A stretch of DNA of 64,000 nucleotides from Acidobacteriota bacterium (lineage in GTDB: Bacteria; Acidobacteriota; Thermoanaerobaculia; UBA5066), in the NCBI GenBank assembly GCA_029567505.1, contig JAKPXO010000168.1, positions 2,828 to 66,827 on the forward strand, written 5' to 3'. Shown here piece after piece: positions 39,859 to 47,154 of this stretch. The position numbers were made by a program, and so were the translations under genes. Each line of letters begins with the position of its first letter. The stretch's first letter is position 1. A model generated the notes under the pieces. The model searched no databases. It was given only the letters and a program-made list of their open reading frames with translations, and was not told the origin of the DNA.

Positions 39859-41188
39859 ACGCGTCCGGCTCCACCGCTCCGTCTTCGTCCGACTCGTCGC
39901 CGTCATGGCCGCCTCGACGCTCGCGATCGTCGTGATCGTCGCGATGCTCTTCTTCGGAGCCGTCGGCGGGAACATCGCGACCGTCCGCCGGATCGCGGAC
40001 GACCATGCCCGCCTCCTCGCGACGGCAGCCCCGGACGAAGCCCGCGCCCGCGAGATCGCCGCGCGGCTCGACGTCGCGATTCGCTTCGAAGGCCCCACCG
40101 GCTCCTTCACGACCGACCCCGCGCTCCCGACGATCGCCGAGGCCGAGCGCGAGAGGGCCTCGGCCCGCGGTCCGCTCCGCGGCGCCGACACGACGATCGC
40201 CGAGGCGCCCGGGGGCGGCCGCTACCTCTTCTCCTGGGCGCACGAGAGGCGCCTGAGGGCCGCGCACGACCGTTTCCTCGTCCTCGCGCTCCTCCTCGTC
40301 CTCCTCGTCGTCGTCGTCGCGCACGAGCTGATCCGCCGCTCTCTCCGGCCGCTCCGCCTCCTCCACGCCGGCGTCGAGAGGCTCGCCGAGGGGGAGCTGG
40401 CCGTCGCCCTCCCCGCGAAGAGCCGAGACGAGTTCGGGACGCTCTCGGCGGCGTTCAACGCCATGGTGACCCGCGTCCGCGAGATGGTGTCCGCGCGCGA
40501 CCGGCTCCTTCGCGACGTGAGCCACGAGCTCCGCTCACCGCTTGCCCGGATGAAGGTCGCGCTCGCGCTCCTCTCCGAGGACGGCAAGACACGCGGGATG
40601 AAGGCCGACGTCGCCGAGATGGAGGCGCTCATCTCGCAGCTCCTCGAGCTCGAGCGGCTCCGCGACGGCCGCGGGCTGAACGTGGGCGCTCACGACGTCG
40701 GCCCCCTCCTGAGAGCGGCGGCGGCACCGTTCGAAGAGACCCCTCCGGGCGTCCTCGTCGAGCTCCCCGCGGGCGAGCTCCCGGCCCGGATCGACCCGGA
40801 GAGGATCCGCACGGTCCTCCGAAACCTCCTCGAGAACGCGGCCAAGTACGCGCTTCCCGACAGCGCGCCCGTCGTCCTCTCGGCGACGCGCGAGGACGGC
40901 GGCATCGCGTTCCGCGTGTGCGACGACGGTCCCGGGATCCCCGACGCCGACCGCGCCGCCCTCTTCGAGCCCTTCACCCGCGTCGACCGCTCCCGCTCGA
41001 AGAAGACCGGCGGCTACGGCCTGGGCCTCGCGATCTGCCGGGGAATCGTCGAAGCGCACGGCGGAGCGATCTCGCTCGAGAGCCGCGAGGGGCGTGGCAC
41101 GACGTTTCTCGTGCACCTCCCTGGCGCGGACCGCGTCGACCAACCGCCTCTCGTTGCCCCGACACCCGTACCTTCCCGCACCCGTTGA
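39851..41188 (+). CDS. sensor histidine kinase (HAMP–HisKA–HATPase)
   Basis: Two TM segments, H-box VSHELRSPL, and G-boxes. Confidence 0.85.
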   Translation: MAERVRLHRSVFVRLVAVMAASTLAIVVIVAMLFFGAVGGNIATVRRIADDHARLLATAAPDEARAREIAARLDVAIRFEGPTGSFTTDPALPTIAEAERERASARGPLRGADTTIAEAPGGGRYLFSWAHERRLRAAHDRFLVLALLLVLLVVVVAHELIRRSLRPLRLLHAGVERLAEGELAVALPAKSRDEFGTLSAAFNAMVTRVREMVSARDRLLRDVSHELRSPLARMKVALALLSEDGKTRGMKADVAEMEALISQLLELERLRDGRGLNVGAHDVGPLLRAAAAPFEETPPGVLVELPAGELPARIDPERIRTVLRNLLENAAKYALPDSAPVVLSATREDGGIAFRVCDDGPGIPDADRAALFEPFTRVDRSRSKKTGGYGLGLAICRGIVEAHGGAISLESREGRGTTFLVHLPGADRVDQPPLVAPTPVPSRTR

Positions 41189-41224
41189 CACGGAGCCCGC
41201 TCCGTCCCATATTCCCGCGCGACG

Positions 41225-41305
41225 GATGCCTAGGGGTGGCCGGGAAACCGGCCTGAGAGCAGACCCTCGAACCTGATCCGGGTCATACCGGCGAAGGGAA
41301 CGGCA
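41225..41305 (+). ncRNA. TPP (THI-box) riboswitch
   Basis: atgcctaGGGGTGGCCgggaaaccGGCCTGAGAgcagACCCtcgAACCTGATCCGGGTCATACCGGCGAAGGGAAcggc matches the conserved TPP aptamer. The CUGAGA bulge and the ACCUGAUCnGGnUAAUnCCnGCGnAGGGA pyrophosphate-sensor helix are both present. Downstream hairpins (cggaagcGGGTgcttccg; ccccgcGTgcgggg) directly abut the RBS GGAAGGAGG. Confidence 0.8.
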
Positions 41306-41388
41306 AACGGAAGCGGGTGCTTCCGCAAACCTCGAGAGACCCCGACGGATCCGCTTCGATCCCCGCGTGCGGGGAAGGAGGCGCTTCC

Positions 41389-43647
41389 ATGACCCGAGCC
41401 CCGAAGACGAAGACCCGAAGCCTCGCGGGCGCGCTCGCGCTCGCCCCGCTCCTCGCGCTGGCCGGACTCGCGCCGGCGACGGAGCCCGATCGGCCCGCCA
41501 CGCCGGGCGCGATGGCCCCGGCCGATTCGGCCGCGCCCGTGGCCGCTCCCGAAACGCCGGCGACCACGCCCGCCTCGGAGACGGTTTCATCCGAAGGCGA
41601 CCCGGCCGCCGAGAAGGTCCCGCCGATGCCCCGCCGCGTCGAGGAAGTCGTCGTCCAGGCCGTCCGCGCCGACGTCGACACGCCGGTCACGAAGACCGAC
41701 GTCCCGCGCGCGGAGATCGAGAGGAAGAACCTCGGGCAGGAGATGCCCGCGCTCCTCGCCGACCTCCCTGCGATGACCTACTACTCCGACACGGGGGTCG
41801 GGAACGGCTACGCCTACGTCTCGATGCGCGGCGTCGGCCCGACCCGGATCAACTTCACGCTCGACGGCGTCCCTCTCAACGAGCCGGAGGACGGCACCCT
41901 CTACTTCGTCGACTTCGGCGACCTCGGGAGCTCCGTCGAGAGCCTCCAGGTGCAGCGCGGCGTCGGGACGTCGGCCGCGGGGGTCGCGAGCTTCGTCGGC
42001 TCGGTCAACTTCGCGAGCCTCGACCTCGCCGAGGAGACGACGACGACGGCGCGGTTCGCCCTCGGCTCGTTCGGGACGGAGCGGGCGACGGTCGGCGTCC
42101 AGACGGGACGCCTCGGAGACTCGGGCTTCAAGGCCTACGTCCGCGGCTCCTACCAGGCGACGGACGGCTACCGCGAGAACTCCGAGATCCGGCAGCGGAG
42201 CCTCTTCGGCGGCCTCTCGCACGAGAGCGAGAAGGGGTACTTCAAGCTCTTCGGCTTCCTCGGGCGGGAGCGGTCGCAGTCGGCCTACTACGCCGTCGAG
42301 CCGGAGCTCCTCGAGGAGGACCCGCGCTACAACCCGCTCACCCCCGACGACCGGGACCGCTTCGGCCAGCAGTTCGTGGAAGCGCAGTACACGCGTTTCC
42401 TCTCCGAGACGACGAGCCTCGCCGGGCAGCTCTACGTGAACGACGCCGGCGGCTGGTACCGCCTCTGGAACTCGTCGCGGACGGCGCTCCGCGAGTACGG
42501 CCTCGACTGGACGAACCTCGGCGCGGCCGTGACGCTGAAGACGACGCTCGGGCCGCTCGGGGTGACGTGGGGCGTCCACGGGAGCGACTTCGGGAGCCGG
42601 CGGACACGCGACGTCGTCGACGGCGCGCGCTCTTACGAGAACCGCGGCTTCAAGGACGAGGCCTCGACGTTCGTGAAGCTCTCGCGCGACGCCGGCGACT
42701 GGCACCTCTACGCCGACGCGCAGCTCCGCTGGGCCCGCTTCCGCTACGACGGCACCGTCGCCGTCGCCCCGGTCTCCTGGACCTTCTTCAACCCGAAGCT
42801 CGGCGTCCGCCGCGATCTCGGGAAGGACCTTTCCCTCTACGCCTCCGTCGGGATGACGAGCCGCGAGCCGGGCCGGGGCGACCTCCTCCTCGGCGAAGAG
42901 AACATCTCCGTCCCGCACGACCTCGACGCGGTGAAGCCGGAGAAGGTCGTGGCGTTCGAGGTCGGGGCCGCCTGGAAGGGCGGCCCCTTCGCCGCCCAGC
43001 TGAACCTCTACGACATGGAGTTCCGCGACGAGATCGCCCTGACGGGCGAGCAGTCGGAGGTGGGGCTCTCGATCCGACGGAACGCCGAACGGAGCTTCCG
43101 GCGCGGCCTCGAGTGGGACCTGGCCTTCCGCCCGCGCGAGGAGCTCGCGTTCCGCTTCACCGGGAGCTGGAGCTGGAACCGGATCCGCTCCTGGACGCAG
43201 TTCTACGAGGTCTACGACGACGCGGGCGAGTGGGCCGGGACGACGAGCCGGACGTTCTCGGACGTCGAGCCGGTCCTCTCGCCGCCGTTCGTCGGGAACC
43301 TGATCGTGGAGGGCTCGCCCCTCCCCGGCCTGACGCTCGGGGCGACCGGGCGGTACGTGGCGAAGGCGTGGCTCGACAACACGAACGCCGAAGGGATCGC
43401 GACGCCGTCGTGGTGGAAGGTCGACCTCTCGGCCTCGTACGACCTCTCGCGCTTCGTGAAGACGGGAAGCCCGAAGGTGAAGGTCGTCGTCGAGAACCTC
43501 TTCGACGAGGAGAAGATCTGGGCGAACGGCTACAGCTGGCTCTACGCGACGCGCGACGGAGCGGGCCGGGAGGCGCTCGGGGCGATCCCGTACTATTTCC
43601 CCATGGCGACGCGCAGCGTGACGGCCGTCCTCGACCTGGGGTTCTGA
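41389..43647 (+). CDS. TonB-dependent outer-membrane receptor
   Basis: Signal peptide. Plug-domain motifs and a 22-strand barrel ending in the C-terminal Phe (VLDLGF*). Confidence 0.85.
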   Translation: MTRAPKTKTRSLAGALALAPLLALAGLAPATEPDRPATPGAMAPADSAAPVAAPETPATTPASETVSSEGDPAAEKVPPMPRRVEEVVVQAVRADVDTPVTKTDVPRAEIERKNLGQEMPALLADLPAMTYYSDTGVGNGYAYVSMRGVGPTRINFTLDGVPLNEPEDGTLYFVDFGDLGSSVESLQVQRGVGTSAAGVASFVGSVNFASLDLAEETTTTARFALGSFGTERATVGVQTGRLGDSGFKAYVRGSYQATDGYRENSEIRQRSLFGGLSHESEKGYFKLFGFLGRERSQSAYYAVEPELLEEDPRYNPLTPDDRDRFGQQFVEAQYTRFLSETTSLAGQLYVNDAGGWYRLWNSSRTALREYGLDWTNLGAAVTLKTTLGPLGVTWGVHGSDFGSRRTRDVVDGARSYENRGFKDEASTFVKLSRDAGDWHLYADAQLRWARFRYDGTVAVAPVSWTFFNPKLGVRRDLGKDLSLYASVGMTSREPGRGDLLLGEENISVPHDLDAVKPEKVVAFEVGAAWKGGPFAAQLNLYDMEFRDEIALTGEQSEVGLSIRRNAERSFRRGLEWDLAFRPREELAFRFTGSWSWNRIRSWTQFYEVYDDAGEWAGTTSRTFSDVEPVLSPPFVGNLIVEGSPLPGLTLGATGRYVAKAWLDNTNAEGIATPSWWKVDLSASYDLSRFVKTGSPKVKVVVENLFDEEKIWANGYSWLYATRDGAGREALGAIPYYFPMATRSVTAVLDLGF

Positions 43648-43648
43648 C

Positions 43649-44245
43649 CTGAACGCGCTCGAGGTCGCCGGCTTCCTCACGGGGATCCTCGCCGTCTGGC
43701 TGACGGCGAAGGAGAGCCCGTGGTGCTGGCCGACGGGGATCGTCAACGTCTCGCTCTACGCCGTCGTCTTCGCGCAGGCGAAGCTCTACGCCGACATGGG
43801 GCTGCAGGGGGTCTTCCTCGCCGTCTGCGCCTATGGCTGGTGGGAGTGGCTCCACGGCGGCGAGGGAGGCGGCCGGCTCGCGGTCTCGCGCGCCTCGCGA
43901 CCGCTCCTTTTCGGCCTCGTCCTCGCGGGCGCCGTCTTCGCGGCCGCGCTCGGCTGGGGCCTTCACCGCGGCACGGACGCCGCCTTCCCGTTCGTCGACT
44001 CCACGCTCGCCTCCTTCAGCCTCGTGGCCCAGTACCTGCAGTCGGTGAAGAAGCTCGAGACCTGGTGGTTCTGGATCGCCGTCGACGTCGGCTACGTCGG
44101 GATGTACCTCGCGAAGGGGCTCACTCTCACGGCGCTCCTCTACGCGATCTTCCTCGCGCTCTGCGTCATCGGCCTGCGCGACTGGAGGCGCTCGCTCGAG
44201 GCGCCGCCGGCCGCGGACGCCGCCCCGGCCGCGGAGCCCGCGTGA
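43649..44245 (+). CDS. PnuC-family transporter (PnuT-like, given riboswitch context)
   Basis: Conserved PnuC N-terminus LEVAGFLTGILAVWLTAKESPWCWPTGIVNVSLYAVVFAQAKLYADMGLQ...YGWWEW and the WWFWI motif. The only in-frame initiator before the conserved region is CTG at 43649, directly after the receptor TGA. The track ORF starts at the internal ATG 43796. Confidence 0.75.
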   Translation: MNALEVAGFLTGILAVWLTAKESPWCWPTGIVNVSLYAVVFAQAKLYADMGLQGVFLAVCAYGWWEWLHGGEGGGRLAVSRASRPLLFGLVLAGAVFAAALGWGLHRGTDAAFPFVDSTLASFSLVAQYLQSVKKLETWWFWIAVDVGYVGMYLAKGLTLTALLYAIFLALCVIGLRDWRRSLEAPPAADAAPAAEPA

Positions 44246-44790
44246 GGCCGCTCCGCGTCGTCGTCACCGGCTCGGAGTGCACGGGAAAGACGACGCTCGC
44301 GCGCGCGCTCGCAAAGCGATTCGGCGCCCCGTGGGTCCCCGAGTTCTGCCGCGGCTGGCAGGACGCGAAGGGGGCCCCGCTCGAGGCCGGGGACGTCGCG
44401 CCGATCGCGCGCGGGCAGGTCGCGGTGGCCGTCGCCGCCGAGGCGGCCGCGCGGGAGCTCGTCGTCCTCGACACGGACCTCCTCTCCACGGTCGTCTACG
44501 CGCGTCACTACTACGGAGCCTGCCCCGGCTGGGTCGAGGATGCGGCGCGGGCACGCCTCGCCGACCTCTACCTCCTCTGCGCGCCCGACCTGCCCTGGAC
44601 CGCCGACGGCATCCGCGACCGTGGCAAAGCCCGCGAGGAGATGCACCGCCTCTTCGCGGAGGAGCTCGCCCGCGCCGGGGCCCGCGTGACCCCGGTCTCG
44701 GGGCTCGGCCCGGCGCGCGGGGACGAGGCCGCCGCCGCGGTGGCGCGCTCCCTCGCCCGGCGCTCCCCCGGGGCACGGTCCGCCGGATAG
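44242..44790 (+). CDS. NadR-type P-loop kinase (ribosylnicotinamide-kinase-like domain)
   Basis: GTGA overlap with pnuC. Walker A VVVTGSECTGKTTLARALA. VLDTDLLSTVVYARHYYG and WVEDAARARLADLYLL parallel the NadR RNK domain (IDTDFITTQAF; WVDDGLRSLG). Confidence 0.7.
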   Translation: MRPLRVVVTGSECTGKTTLARALAKRFGAPWVPEFCRGWQDAKGAPLEAGDVAPIARGQVAVAVAAEAAARELVVLDTDLLSTVVYARHYYGACPGWVEDAARARLADLYLLCAPDLPWTADGIRDRGKAREEMHRLFAEELARAGARVTPVSGLGPARGDEAAAAVARSLARRSPGARSAG

Positions 44791-44862
44791 ACTCCCTGCA
44801 ACCAACGCCCCCGGCAGCACGGATCGACCCCGCACGGCCCCGAGCCGGAAGAAGGAGGACCC

Positions 44863-45258
44863 ATGAACCGCAGCCGCCTGCCCCTCGCCCTCGTCGTCCT
44901 CGCCCTCCTCGCGACCGCCTACCCCGCGGCGGCGGATCGCTGGGTCCTCCTCGGCGAGAAGCACGTCACCGACCGCGTCGAGAGGGATACGATCGTCGTC
45001 ACCGCCACCCGCGGCGACTTCGAGGCGATCCAGGTCCGGGTGAAACGCGCCGCCGTACGCTTCGTCGACGTCAAGGTCATCTACGGGAACGGCTCGACGG
45101 ACGACCTCGCCATTCGCGACGTCATTCCTGCCGGGGGCGAGTCCCGCGTGATCGACCTGAAGGGAGGCGACCGCGTCCTCCACCGCGTCGACTTCGTCTA
45201 CGAAGCGAAGTCGCTCGGGCGGCGCGGTGCGCTCGTCCAGGTCTGGGGCCGGCGCTGA
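44863..45258 (+). CDS. secreted hypothetical protein
   Basis: Signal peptide MNRSRLPLALVVLALLATAYPAAA, ~100 aa mature. No family recognised. Confidence 0.5.
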   Translation: MNRSRLPLALVVLALLATAYPAAADRWVLLGEKHVTDRVERDTIVVTATRGDFEAIQVRVKRAAVRFVDVKVIYGNGSTDDLAIRDVIPAGGESRVIDLKGGDRVLHRVDFVYEAKSLGRRGALVQVWGRR

Positions 45259-45269
45259 AGGAAGCCGAC

Positions 45270-46157
45270 GTGGGCAAGGACGCGAAGCTCTCCCGCCCCT
45301 ACCGCGTCGAAAGCGGGAAGAAGTTCCGCCTGAAGGACTTCGACCCGGGCGACACCGGCGGACTCAAGCTCGAGAAGGACCACGCCGCCGAGAAGCTCGA
45401 GAAGGGGGTCGATCTCCTCGCCGCGCTCCAGGACAAGCTCTACGCCCAGGACAAGCGGGCCCTCCTCCTCATCTTCCAGGCGATGGACGCCGCCGGGAAG
45501 GACGGCACGATCAAGCACGTCATGTCGGGCGTGAACCCCCAGGGGTGCCAGGTCTTCGCGTTCAAGGCGCCGTCGGCCGAGGAGCTCGACCACGACTTCC
45601 TCTGGAGGACGACGAAGTGCCTCCCGGAGCGAGGGCGGATCGGCATCTTCAACCGCTCGTACTACGAGGAGGTCCTCGTCGTGCGGGTCCACCCGCAGAT
45701 CCTCGCGGGGCAGAAGCTCCCGCCCGAGCTCGTGACGAAGAGGATCTGGGACGAGCGCCTCGAGGACATCGCCGCGATGGAGCGCTACCTGACGCGGAAC
45801 GGGATCGCCGTCGTCAAGTTCTTCCTGAACGTGTCGAAGAAGGAGCAGCGGAAACGCTTCCTCGACCGGCTCGAGGAGCCCGACAAGAACTGGAAGTTCG
45901 CGCTCGGCGACGTCGAGGAGCGGAAGCACTGGGACGCCTACCAGGAGGCCTACGAGGAGGCGATCCGCGCGACGGCGACCCCCTGGGCGCCCTGGTACGT
46001 CGTTCCGGCCGACGCGAAGTGGTACACGCGCCTCGTCGTCGCCTCGGCGGTGATCGACGCGCTCGAGAGGATGGACCTCGCCTACCCGGAGGTCGACGAG
46101 GCGAAGAAGGCGGAGCTCGAGAAGGCGCGGGAGGCGTTGGCGACGGCGAAGGGCTGA
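45270..46157 (+). CDS. ppk2: polyphosphate kinase 2 (PPK2) family nucleotide phosphotransferase
   Basis: GTG with gaaggaag upstream. PPK2 motifs IFQAMDAAGKDGT (Walker A-like) and FNRSYYEEV, and a lid region. Confidence 0.85.
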   Translation: MGKDAKLSRPYRVESGKKFRLKDFDPGDTGGLKLEKDHAAEKLEKGVDLLAALQDKLYAQDKRALLLIFQAMDAAGKDGTIKHVMSGVNPQGCQVFAFKAPSAEELDHDFLWRTTKCLPERGRIGIFNRSYYEEVLVVRVHPQILAGQKLPPELVTKRIWDERLEDIAAMERYLTRNGIAVVKFFLNVSKKEQRKRFLDRLEEPDKNWKFALGDVEERKHWDAYQEAYEEAIRATATPWAPWYVVPADAKWYTRLVVASAVIDALERMDLAYPEVDEAKKAELEKAREALATAKG

Positions 46158-46167
46158 TCGCCCCGGC

Positions 46168-47154
46168 TCAGGAGTGGAGCTCGACGACGTCGCGGTCCGC
46201 GAGGACGTGGGCCCGGTCGACCTGCTGCCCGTCGAACTTCGCGTGCCCCCAGATCCGCGCGAAGCGAAGGGCGGAGGCGACGTCCTTGTGGACGCGTTCC
46301 GCGAGGTCGTGGACCGTCGCGCCGTCGGGGAGGACGAACGGGGCGGCGAGATCGGGCTTCTTCCCGGGCTCCTTCGCGTAGACGCGGATCCGCCGCAGCT
46401 CGCGCCAGAGGAGGAGCCGTAGATCGTCGAGCCCCGCTCCCGAGAGGGCCGAGACCGGATGGAATGGCAGGTCCGTCCCGATCGCCTCGCGCGCCATCTC
46501 GGCGAACGTCCCGTCGTCGAGGTCACTCTTGTTCCCGAGCGCGATGACCGGCCTCACGGCGAGGAAGGGCGGCGCATCAGCGGGGAGCGGCCGCACGCGC
46601 GGCCAGACGCGCGCCTTCTCGAGGAGCTCGAGGAGGAGCTTCGCCGAATCCTCCCCGTCGTCCGCGGCCACGTCGAGGACGAGGAGGACGCCGTCGGCGT
46701 TGTGGGCGAGGTTCGCGAGGTAGGGCTCGGTGTGGCCTGCGGCGACCGCCGGGGTGTCGACGAGCTGCACCTGGACGTCCTCGAACGGCATCATCCCGGG
46801 GAGCGGGACGCGGGTCGTGAAGGGGTACTCCCCGATCTCCGGGTGGGCATGGGTGAGGGCGGCGAGGAGGGTGGACTTCCCCGCGTTCGGCTCGCCGAGG
46901 AGGACCCACTGGCCGGCCCCCTCGCGCTTCACGTGCCCCGGGTCCGCCCGCCGCCCGCCGTGCGCGGCGTGCTCGACCTCGCTCTCGAGCTTCGCGAGCC
47001 TCTTCTTCAGGTCGGCGTAGAGCTTCTCGGTCCCCTTGTGCTTCGGGAGGAGCGCGATCATCTCGCGCATCGCCGCGAGCCTCTCCTCGTGCGTCGCCGC
47101 CGCCTTAAACCGCTCCTCGGCGTCGTGGTAGGGCGGCGTCAGGTTCGCGGGCAC
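46168..47154 (-). CDS. Obg/DRG-like GTPase with C-terminal TGS domain
   Basis: Start taken at GTG (VPANLTPPYHDAEERFK...). G1 GEPNAGKST, G3 DTPAV, G4 NKSD. The C-terminal TGS-like module reads IRVYAKEPGKKPD...ARIWG. Upstream in-frame sequence would overlap the next gene and looks non-coding. Confidence 0.75.
   Translation of the reverse strand: MPANLTPPYHDAEERFKAAATHEERLAAMREMIALLPKHKGTEKLYADLKKRLAKLESEVEHAAHGGRRADPGHVKREGAGQWVLLGEPNAGKSTLLAALTHAHPEIGEYPFTTRVPLPGMMPFEDVQVQLVDTPAVAAGHTEPYLANLAHNADGVLLVLDVAADDGEDSAKLLLELLEKARVWPRVRPLPADAPPFLAVRPVIALGNKSDLDDGTFAEMAREAIGTDLPFHPVSALSGAGLDDLRLLLWRELRRIRVYAKEPGKKPDLAAPFVLPDGATVHDLAERVHKDVASALRFARIWGHAKFDGQQVDRAHVLADRDVVELHS

Follow-up and report, generated by a model that had tools for sequence, protein, structure and literature searches.

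We analyzed a stretch of 64,000 nucleotides (hereafter the window) of contig JAKPXO010000168.1, from an Acidobacteriota bacterium of the class Thermoanaerobaculia (assembly GCA_029567505.1), and focused on a three-gene operon that is preceded by a thiamine pyrophosphate (TPP) riboswitch. The operon encodes a TonB-dependent outer-membrane receptor (TBDR), a facilitator of the Pnu family and a standalone P-loop kinase related to the ribosylnicotinamide kinase (RNK) domain of NadR. Our results indicate that this operon very probably serves, under TPP control, in the uptake of thiamine or a related compound. The role of thiamine as phosphoryl acceptor is a prediction well supported by context and, by analogy with characterized systems, we lean toward thiamine itself as the physiological substrate of the kinase. 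The elements of the operon are the following:

41185-41213, + strand: sigma-70-like promoter (TTGACA, 17-nt spacer, CATATT), matching at 10 of 12 positions
41222-41317, + strand: TPP riboswitch aptamer (THI element), Rfam RF00059, with homologous aptamers in 39 related loci
41318-41388, + strand: expression platform with a hairpin over the Shine-Dalgarno sequence and a predicted switching mechanism
41389-43647, + strand: TBDR of 752 aa, ATG start, Plug and beta-barrel domains
43649-44245, + strand: PnuT-like facilitator of the Pnu family, 198 aa, CTG start, PF04973
44242-44790, + strand: standalone NadR-RNK-like P-loop kinase of 182 aa, GTG start, PF13521, candidate thiamine kinase

A scan of the whole window against Rfam (cmscan) returned a single match, the TPP riboswitch, which scored 61.5 bits (gathering score 54.3, E 1.2e-9) over the full length of the model (positions 1-105). 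The aptamer starts 8 nt after the end of the promoter, which is the sole sigma-70-like site in 41000-46400 (0.0 expected from shuffles at this number of matching positions) and which places the length of the leader at about 170-200 nt. Further downstream, the segment CGCUUC (41352-41357) pairs with GAGGCG (41378-41383), and this helix covers the Shine-Dalgarno sequence GGAGG (41377-41381) located 7 nt 5' of the ATG of the receptor. The helix is present in both the minimum free energy and the centroid folds and was kept in 10 related leaders, where the inner stem varies and four pairs present compensatory changes. A sequence scan of the leader detected no terminator-like site with a U-tract. 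We infer that the leader acts as a translational OFF switch and that polarity and coupling would pass repression on to the second and third genes. Binding of TPP and repression by this element are predicted from the match to the covariance model and from the conserved helix over the Shine-Dalgarno sequence.

The first gene product matches both TBDR domains above cutoff (PF07715 Plug, 40 bits; PF00593 barrel, 83 bits) and starts with a signal-peptide-like hydrophobic stretch. No specific equivalog was reached in the NCBIfam profile search. Orthologues of this receptor were found downstream of the riboswitch in 38 loci, and it is this linkage that suggests a thiamine-specific receptor of the OMthi/Omr1 type. 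The second gene product matches PF04973 with 184 bits over profile positions 2-175, aligns with the PnuC of N. mucosa (4QTN) and carries the WxxW(x)3D motif, located in transmembrane segment 6, as WWFWIAVD. The class of the riboswitch is known to predict the specificity of Pnu-type transporters (PMC7749635) and reading a pnuC gene linked to a TPP riboswitch as pnuT is established practice (PMC7749635, PMC5301498); the Pnu gene of the window presents this association.

The three genes are tightly coupled. A single nucleotide separates the stop codon of the receptor from the start of the Pnu gene (TGA at 43645-43647, c, CTG at 43649-43651) and the Pnu and kinase genes overlap by 4 nt (GTGA, 44242-44245). 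The CTG start of the Pnu gene appears credible based on several lines of sequence evidence: no ATG, GTG or TTG occurs from the upstream in-frame stop (43619) to the ATG at 43796, whose Met lies 49 codons into the Pfam domain; the NCBI annotation gives the same product of 198 aa on sibling contigs with an identical kinase; a canonical start (ATG, GTG or TTG) occupies the aligned position in 46 orthologues; and CTG is restricted to the window and the six relatives closest to it (L001, L002, L005, L008, L011 and L013). Initiation at this codon might occur through translational coupling to the stop codon of the receptor. Gene calls of the ENA type start at the ATG at 43796 and shorten the protein to 149 aa.

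The third gene product matches PF13521 (AAA_28) with 121.7 bits. In NCBIfam it matches NadR models in their RNK portion alone, and far under the equivalog cutoffs (TIGR01526, 89 bits for a cutoff of 341; NF005988, 44.7 bits for a cutoff of 201). The protein consists of the kinase domain only, without the nicotinamide mononucleotide adenylyltransferase (NMNAT) or helix-turn-helix (HTH) domains, and is not a bifunctional or trifunctional NadR. Above noise, its sequence matches in the PDB were to NadR proteins and, over 27 residues of the P-loop region, to adenylate kinase 9. The AlphaFold (AF2) model of the kinase (pLDDT 91) was matched best by Foldseek to the NadR structures 8x7f (TM 0.87, 1.7 Å), 6gyf and 1lw7, and thymidylate kinases ranked after the NadR RNK domains. 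The Walker A (GSECTGKT), the Walker B (DTD, within DTDLLST) and the LID (PDLPWTADGIRDRG, containing DGxRDR) are invariant in relatives. Searches of Pfam and NCBIfam gave no match to TPK/ThiN/Tnr3 (TPK, thiamine pyrophosphokinase) or to ThiK, and matches with E <= 0.01 were limited to AAA-type and NadR models. If it is a thiamine kinase, the 182-aa protein is non-orthologous to both TPK and ThiK.

A protein encoded in a Thermoanaerobaculia metagenome-assembled genome (MAG) shares 99% identity with the kinase. In public databases, relatives of the kinase are named "ATP-binding protein" (NCBI) or "NadR type nicotinamide-nucleotide adenylyltransferase" (JGI). The JGI name is given to kinase-only proteins of 180 aa (P0010, P0037, P0040 and many others) that present no adenylyltransferase domain, which constitutes a systematic over-annotation.

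These results bear out every checkable point of a sequence-only reading of this region, which had described a textbook THI-box aptamer in a leader of about 200 nt, three tightly coupled genes with the junctions TGAcCTG and GTGA, a PnuC homologue in the middle and, as third gene, a NadR-RNK-like P-loop kinase rather than a TPK. The element scores as a TPP riboswitch above the gathering threshold in the covariance search, both junctions were found in the sequence, the middle gene encodes a member of the PnuC/PnuT family and the third a protein with the predicted fold of the NadR RNK domain.

We then scanned GTDB species genomes with the kinase and found 328 relatives. The best 80 of these 328 loci were classified by tblastn, Rfam, a regular expression and a purpose-built covariance model. 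They come from Acidobacteriota and Gemmatimonadota and present the following architectures:

Riboswitch, TBDR, Pnu and kinase: 37 loci
TBDR, Pnu and kinase, cut off at the 5' end by the contig edge: 4 loci
Riboswitch, Pnu and kinase without TBDR: 1 locus (L065)
Riboswitch, TBDR and kinase without Pnu, followed by a PTP-like phosphatase: 1 locus (L079)
TBDR and kinase without Pnu, with the upstream region off the contig: 1 locus (L064)
Pnu and kinase with at least 300 nt of upstream DNA and no riboswitch: 27 loci (19 in Gemmatimonadota, 8 in Acidobacteriota or other)
Pnu and kinase with too little upstream DNA: 6 loci
Kinase alone: 3 loci

The riboswitch was found ahead of the same genes in 39 of these 80 related loci, which span several lineages of Acidobacteriota (records labelled Thermoanaerobaculia, Holophagales, Vicinamibacterales and Marinacidobacterales). 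Each of the 38 related loci with a TBDR and its upstream DNA carries the riboswitch, as does the window. Because the same order recurs in 37 other loci, the association of the riboswitch with this gene order is far beyond chance. The kinase itself tracks the riboswitch, since the linkage persists in the locus without TBDR and in the locus without Pnu. The synteny of receptor, pnuC and RNK-like kinase with THI elements had been proposed for comparison across related genomes in the sequence-only reading, which also argued that the riboswitch makes the whole unit thiamine-responsive. The 37 loci with the complete order answer the former, and the latter is supported by the riboswitch in all TBDR loci with upstream DNA, by these two reduced loci and by kinases adjoining thiBPQ genes (see below).

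Three of the related loci present individual features. In L065 (5091-5429), the aptamer lies about 240 nt 5' of the pnuC-kinase pair, and this long spacer might be what is left of a lost receptor gene, or else a lengthened expression platform. In L079 (3759-7129), riboswitch, TBDR and kinase are followed by a PTP/DSP-like phosphatase, with a convergent PPK2 gene downstream. Finally, L076 is a Pnu-kinase pair similar to those of Gemmatimonadota and Acidobacteriota in a MAG record labelled 'uncultured Bifidobacterium sp.'; its transporter motif ends in Asn and the contig is probably mis-binned.

A second thiamine context was identified in a search of 1.84 billion representative proteins, which returned 3949 relatives of the kinase. 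One of these (P0187), from a marine metagenome and 41% identical to the kinase of the window, is encoded directly 5' of a TPP riboswitch that is followed by thiB and thiP, and this thiB reaches 354 bits for the equivalog model TIGR01276 (cutoff 317). Relatives of P0187 (49-56% identical to it, one of them labelled Acidiferrobacteraceae) present kinase, riboswitch and thiB-P-Q on three further contigs, whose riboswitches score 60.6-66.8 bits (51.5-66.8 bits for the whole marine set). The metagenome scan with P0187 yielded two near-identical contigs, and the recurrence of this context was shown through homologous proteins and their contigs. The loci are:

Marine gammaproteobacterial loci with kinase, riboswitch and thiBPQ: L090 (923-3624); L094; L096-L098 (4501-8562)

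In addition, two proteins combine a Pnu transporter and an AAA_28 kinase in one polypeptide of 370 aa (P0127, in L086 at 639-1751, and P0135). The first was found on two independent contigs, and the transporter motif ends in Asn in P0127 and in Asp in P0135. These fusions support the view that the transporter and a trapping kinase constitute a functional unit.

Based on these observations, we propose a model of how the operon would function. Transcription would proceed from the promoter at 41185-41213 and the 5' leader would fold into the TPP aptamer. When TPP is plentiful, the downstream hairpin would hide the Shine-Dalgarno sequence of the first gene and translation of the coupled genes would fall. 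When TPP is scarce, the TBDR would actively bring thiamine, or a close vitamer, through the outer membrane and thiamine would diffuse over the inner membrane through the Pnu facilitator. The RNK-like kinase would then transfer the gamma-phosphate of ATP to the hydroxyethyl group of thiamine to form thiamine monophosphate (TMP), which is not carried by Pnu transporters, so that the vitamin would be trapped. TMP is the expected product, as in the ThiK reaction, because a P-loop kinase of the RNK fold transfers one phosphate. TMP requires ThiL to become TPP, and a ThiL encoded elsewhere would finish the synthesis. The kinase, although of the NadR RNK lineage, would hold the place and the role of TPK (tnr3) in the OMthi-pnuT-tnr3 operons of Bacteroides and catalyze the reaction of E. 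coli ThiK.

The likeness to the TPP-riboswitch-OMthi-pnuT-tnr3 thiamine uptake operons of Bacteroides (PMC5613172) is extensive, in agreement with the analogy drawn in the sequence-only reading: riboswitch, TBDR, Pnu facilitator and cytoplasmic phosphorylating enzyme come in the same order and with the same logic of uptake and trapping. In contrast with these operons, however, the third gene encodes a NadR-RNK/AAA_28 P-loop kinase and not a TPK, the expected product is TMP (then processed by ThiL) rather than TPP in one step, and the phylum is Acidobacteriota; the receptor is likened to OMthi by its position in the operon. A Pnu facilitator is also combined with an RNK-fold kinase that traps a cationic vitamin by phosphorylating a primary alcohol in the salvage of nicotinamide riboside (NR) by PnuC and NadR in E. 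coli, H. influenzae and L. lactis (PMC7221760), and our kinase is homologous to the NadR RNK domain in sequence and fold. Unlike PnuC-NadR, it is standalone and far under the NadR equivalog cutoffs, and its operon is linked to a TBDR and controlled by a TPP riboswitch rather than by NadR or an NAD riboswitch.

The Pnu protein can be compared with PnuT of Shewanella woodyi (PnuT-Sw), which mediates facilitated diffusion of thiamine and binds neither TMP nor TPP, which fits metabolic trapping through a kinase (PMC5749112). Its Asp in the WxxW(x)3D motif is essential, as the substitution D166A abolishes thiamine binding (PMC5749112). The likeness to the Pnu protein of the window is one of family and motif, and the Asp form of the motif is not specific. 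The proposed conversion of thiamine and ATP to TMP, in partnership with a thiamine importer, also resembles that of enterobacterial ThiK (YcfN) with ThiBPQ, and the marine relatives adjoin thiBPQ. The kinase of the window presents no match to ThiK in Pfam or NCBIfam. ThiK has an aminoglycoside-phosphotransferase-like fold that is unrelated to RNK.

Several observations weigh against thiamine as the substrate, and they bear mostly on the possibility that the Pnu protein and the kinase form an ordinary module for the uptake and phosphorylation of NR (PnuC with a standalone RNK) behind a thiamine-regulated receptor, the TPP control being incidental or a form of cofactor cross-talk. The closest characterized homologues of the kinase are NadR RNK domains, and the Pnu protein formally exceeds the cutoff of the PnuC equivalog TIGR01528 (77 bits for a cutoff of 42). 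Eight representatives that are 40-44% identical to the kinase present an N-terminal nucleotidyltransferase domain (GKFxPPHxGH) and are true NMNAT-RNK enzymes of the NadR type, presumably NR kinases, and these NMNAT-fused proteins have most motifs in common with the kinase of the window. Two of them nest among the standalone kinases in a neighbor-joining tree of 136 representatives. NR kinase activity is therefore probably ancestral in the family, given the closeness and the nested position of these relatives. Furthermore, the 27 orthologous Pnu-kinase pairs without a riboswitch also lack a TBDR, and riboswitch-linked and unlinked kinases interleave in the neighbor-joining tree of the kinases, which indicates that they are orthologues and not two subfamilies. 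The neighbors of these riboswitch-less pairs (GSDH, pyruvate kinase, M20 peptidase, MFS, GFO/IDH, FeoB and similar genes) are uninformative for either NAD or thiamine. Finally, the kinase of the marine loci lies upstream of the riboswitch, and hence is not under its control, and the marine neighborhood is wholly syntenic, with one locus (L099) retaining the kinase without thiBPQ. For these reasons the thiBPQ context is suggestive and represents the arrangement of one lineage.

Sequence features were also evaluated as markers of the substrate. The "EC" of the P-loop was rejected as a clade marker: all eight NMNAT-fused proteins have "ES", but EC and ES forms interleave in the tree of 136 representatives. 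The last residue of the transporter motif WxxW(x)3[D/N] was likewise rejected as a discriminator between thiamine and NR. Asp is found in PnuT-Sw and 70 of 72 orthologues, and the PnuC proteins of N. mucosa and E. coli have Asn. However, transporters next to distant kinases without a thiamine link have Asp as well, and one fusion has Asn. A search for specificity positions yielded two columns, Cys13 (P-loop) and Ser82 (following Walker B). Both thiamine-linked groups conserve these residues, whereas none of the nine kinase domains from NMNAT-fused proteins or E. coli NadR has them, which lends weaker support to thiamine. Both residues are also present in the riboswitch-less orthologues, and they might represent specificity positions. 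No sequence feature clearly establishes a change of substrate of the kinase.

Nevertheless, we consider that an NR module is unlikely, and the genomic surroundings speak for a physiological substrate of the kinase other than NR. The tight coupling by a 1-nt gap and a 4-nt overlap is kept in 37 loci across several orders, which counts against an incidental position behind the receptor. The same is true of the riboswitch placed straight ahead of the Pnu-kinase pair where the receptor is missing (L065), and of the kinase retained with riboswitch and TBDR where Pnu is missing (L079). An independent branch of the kinase adjoins thiBPQ, and none of the examined loci showed an NAD riboswitch or a gene related to NAD.

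The nature of the imported compound leaves room for another explanation, in which the cargo is a precursor or breakdown product of thiamine, such as the thiazole alcohol hydroxyethylthiazole (HET) or cHET, or a pyrimidine such as hydroxymethylpyrimidine (HMP), and the kinase is ThiM-like or ThiD-like and feeds ThiE. TPP riboswitches also govern the precursor transporters CytX, ThiW and ThiU (PMC6593275), HET has the same hydroxyethyl acceptor as thiamine, and neither the profile matches nor the specificity positions of the kinase tell these acceptors apart. However, thiamine itself is handled by the nearest characterized systems of the same layout, OMthi-PnuT of Bacteroides and PnuT of S. woodyi (PMC5613172, PMC5749112), and the second context involves thiBPQ with a thiB that reaches the thiamine-binding model. 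We therefore regard this explanation as improbable. It is also conceivable that the P-loop protein is not a small-molecule kinase but an ATPase with a regulatory or gating function on the Pnu channel or the receptor. The Pnu-kinase fusions would also fit a regulatory subunit, and NadR was proposed in older literature to affect the activity of PnuC. This seems very improbable in light of the conservation of the full RNK catalytic set (Walker A, Walker B DTD and LID with DGxRDR), the superimposition of the fold on active RNK domains, and the occurrence of the kinase in L079, which lacks Pnu, and next to the ABC importer of the marine lineage.

The DNA around the operon presents additional features. 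Two genes were identified downstream of the kinase:

44863-45258: small secreted DUF2541 protein
45270-46157: PPK2 polyphosphate kinase

The location of a polyphosphate-dependent kinase (PPK2) beside a kinase operon is curious. A functional tie of the operon to these two genes was rejected: PPK2 is downstream solely in close relatives and at varying distance, which denotes local synteny rather than membership of the unit. We conclude that the nearby PPK2 is probably unrelated local synteny. Based on offsets from the gene calls of L081, the region upstream (about 37.2-41.0 kb) is predicted to contain a PIN-domain toxin accompanied by a small gene as partner, together with a DUF6922/AbiEii pair and a Helicase_C fragment. 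The DUF6922/AbiEii pair constitutes a toxin-antitoxin module of the nucleotidyltransferase type or an abortive-infection module. By the same offsets, a PF10136 'SpecificRecomb' protein would lie farther downstream (about 47.2-49.2 kb). The operon may thus adjoin mobile or defence-related DNA.

Metabolic reconstructions list only ThiK, ThiM and TPK/ThiN as salvage enzymes of vitamin B1 (PMC6593275). We found no link of a NadR-like or AAA_28 kinase to thiamine in the searchable full-text literature, and an earlier mention in subscription papers is possible. What is new here is the prediction that a kinase of the RNK family takes the place of TPK within the known layout of riboswitch, receptor and Pnu facilitator. 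A broader proposal, to which we give equal weight for and against, is that standalone RNK-like proteins with GSECTGKT and DTDL.ST constitute a new family of thiamine kinases derived from NadR-type NR kinases. This family would have members in Acidobacteriota, Gemmatimonadota and marine Gammaproteobacteria, now mislabelled as NadR or as nicotinamide mononucleotide adenylyltransferase, and would supply the missing step from thiamine to TMP for importers of the PnuT and ThiBPQ types in bacteria without ThiK and TPK.

Salvage of thiamine is one of the main routes by which vitamins are exchanged in soils, sediments and oceans, and Acidobacteriota and Gemmatimonadota are abundant and poorly cultured. 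If our prediction is true, these kinases would represent a fourth, unrelated family of B1 salvage kinases, which would alter the predictions of auxotrophy for many MAGs, and their widespread annotation under the JGI and NCBI names would be corrected. The candidate specificity positions Cys13 and Ser82 are suited to mutagenesis. On the same condition, the pair of transporter and kinase would constitute a clean case of parallel neofunctionalization, from PnuC and RNK to PnuT and a thiamine kinase.

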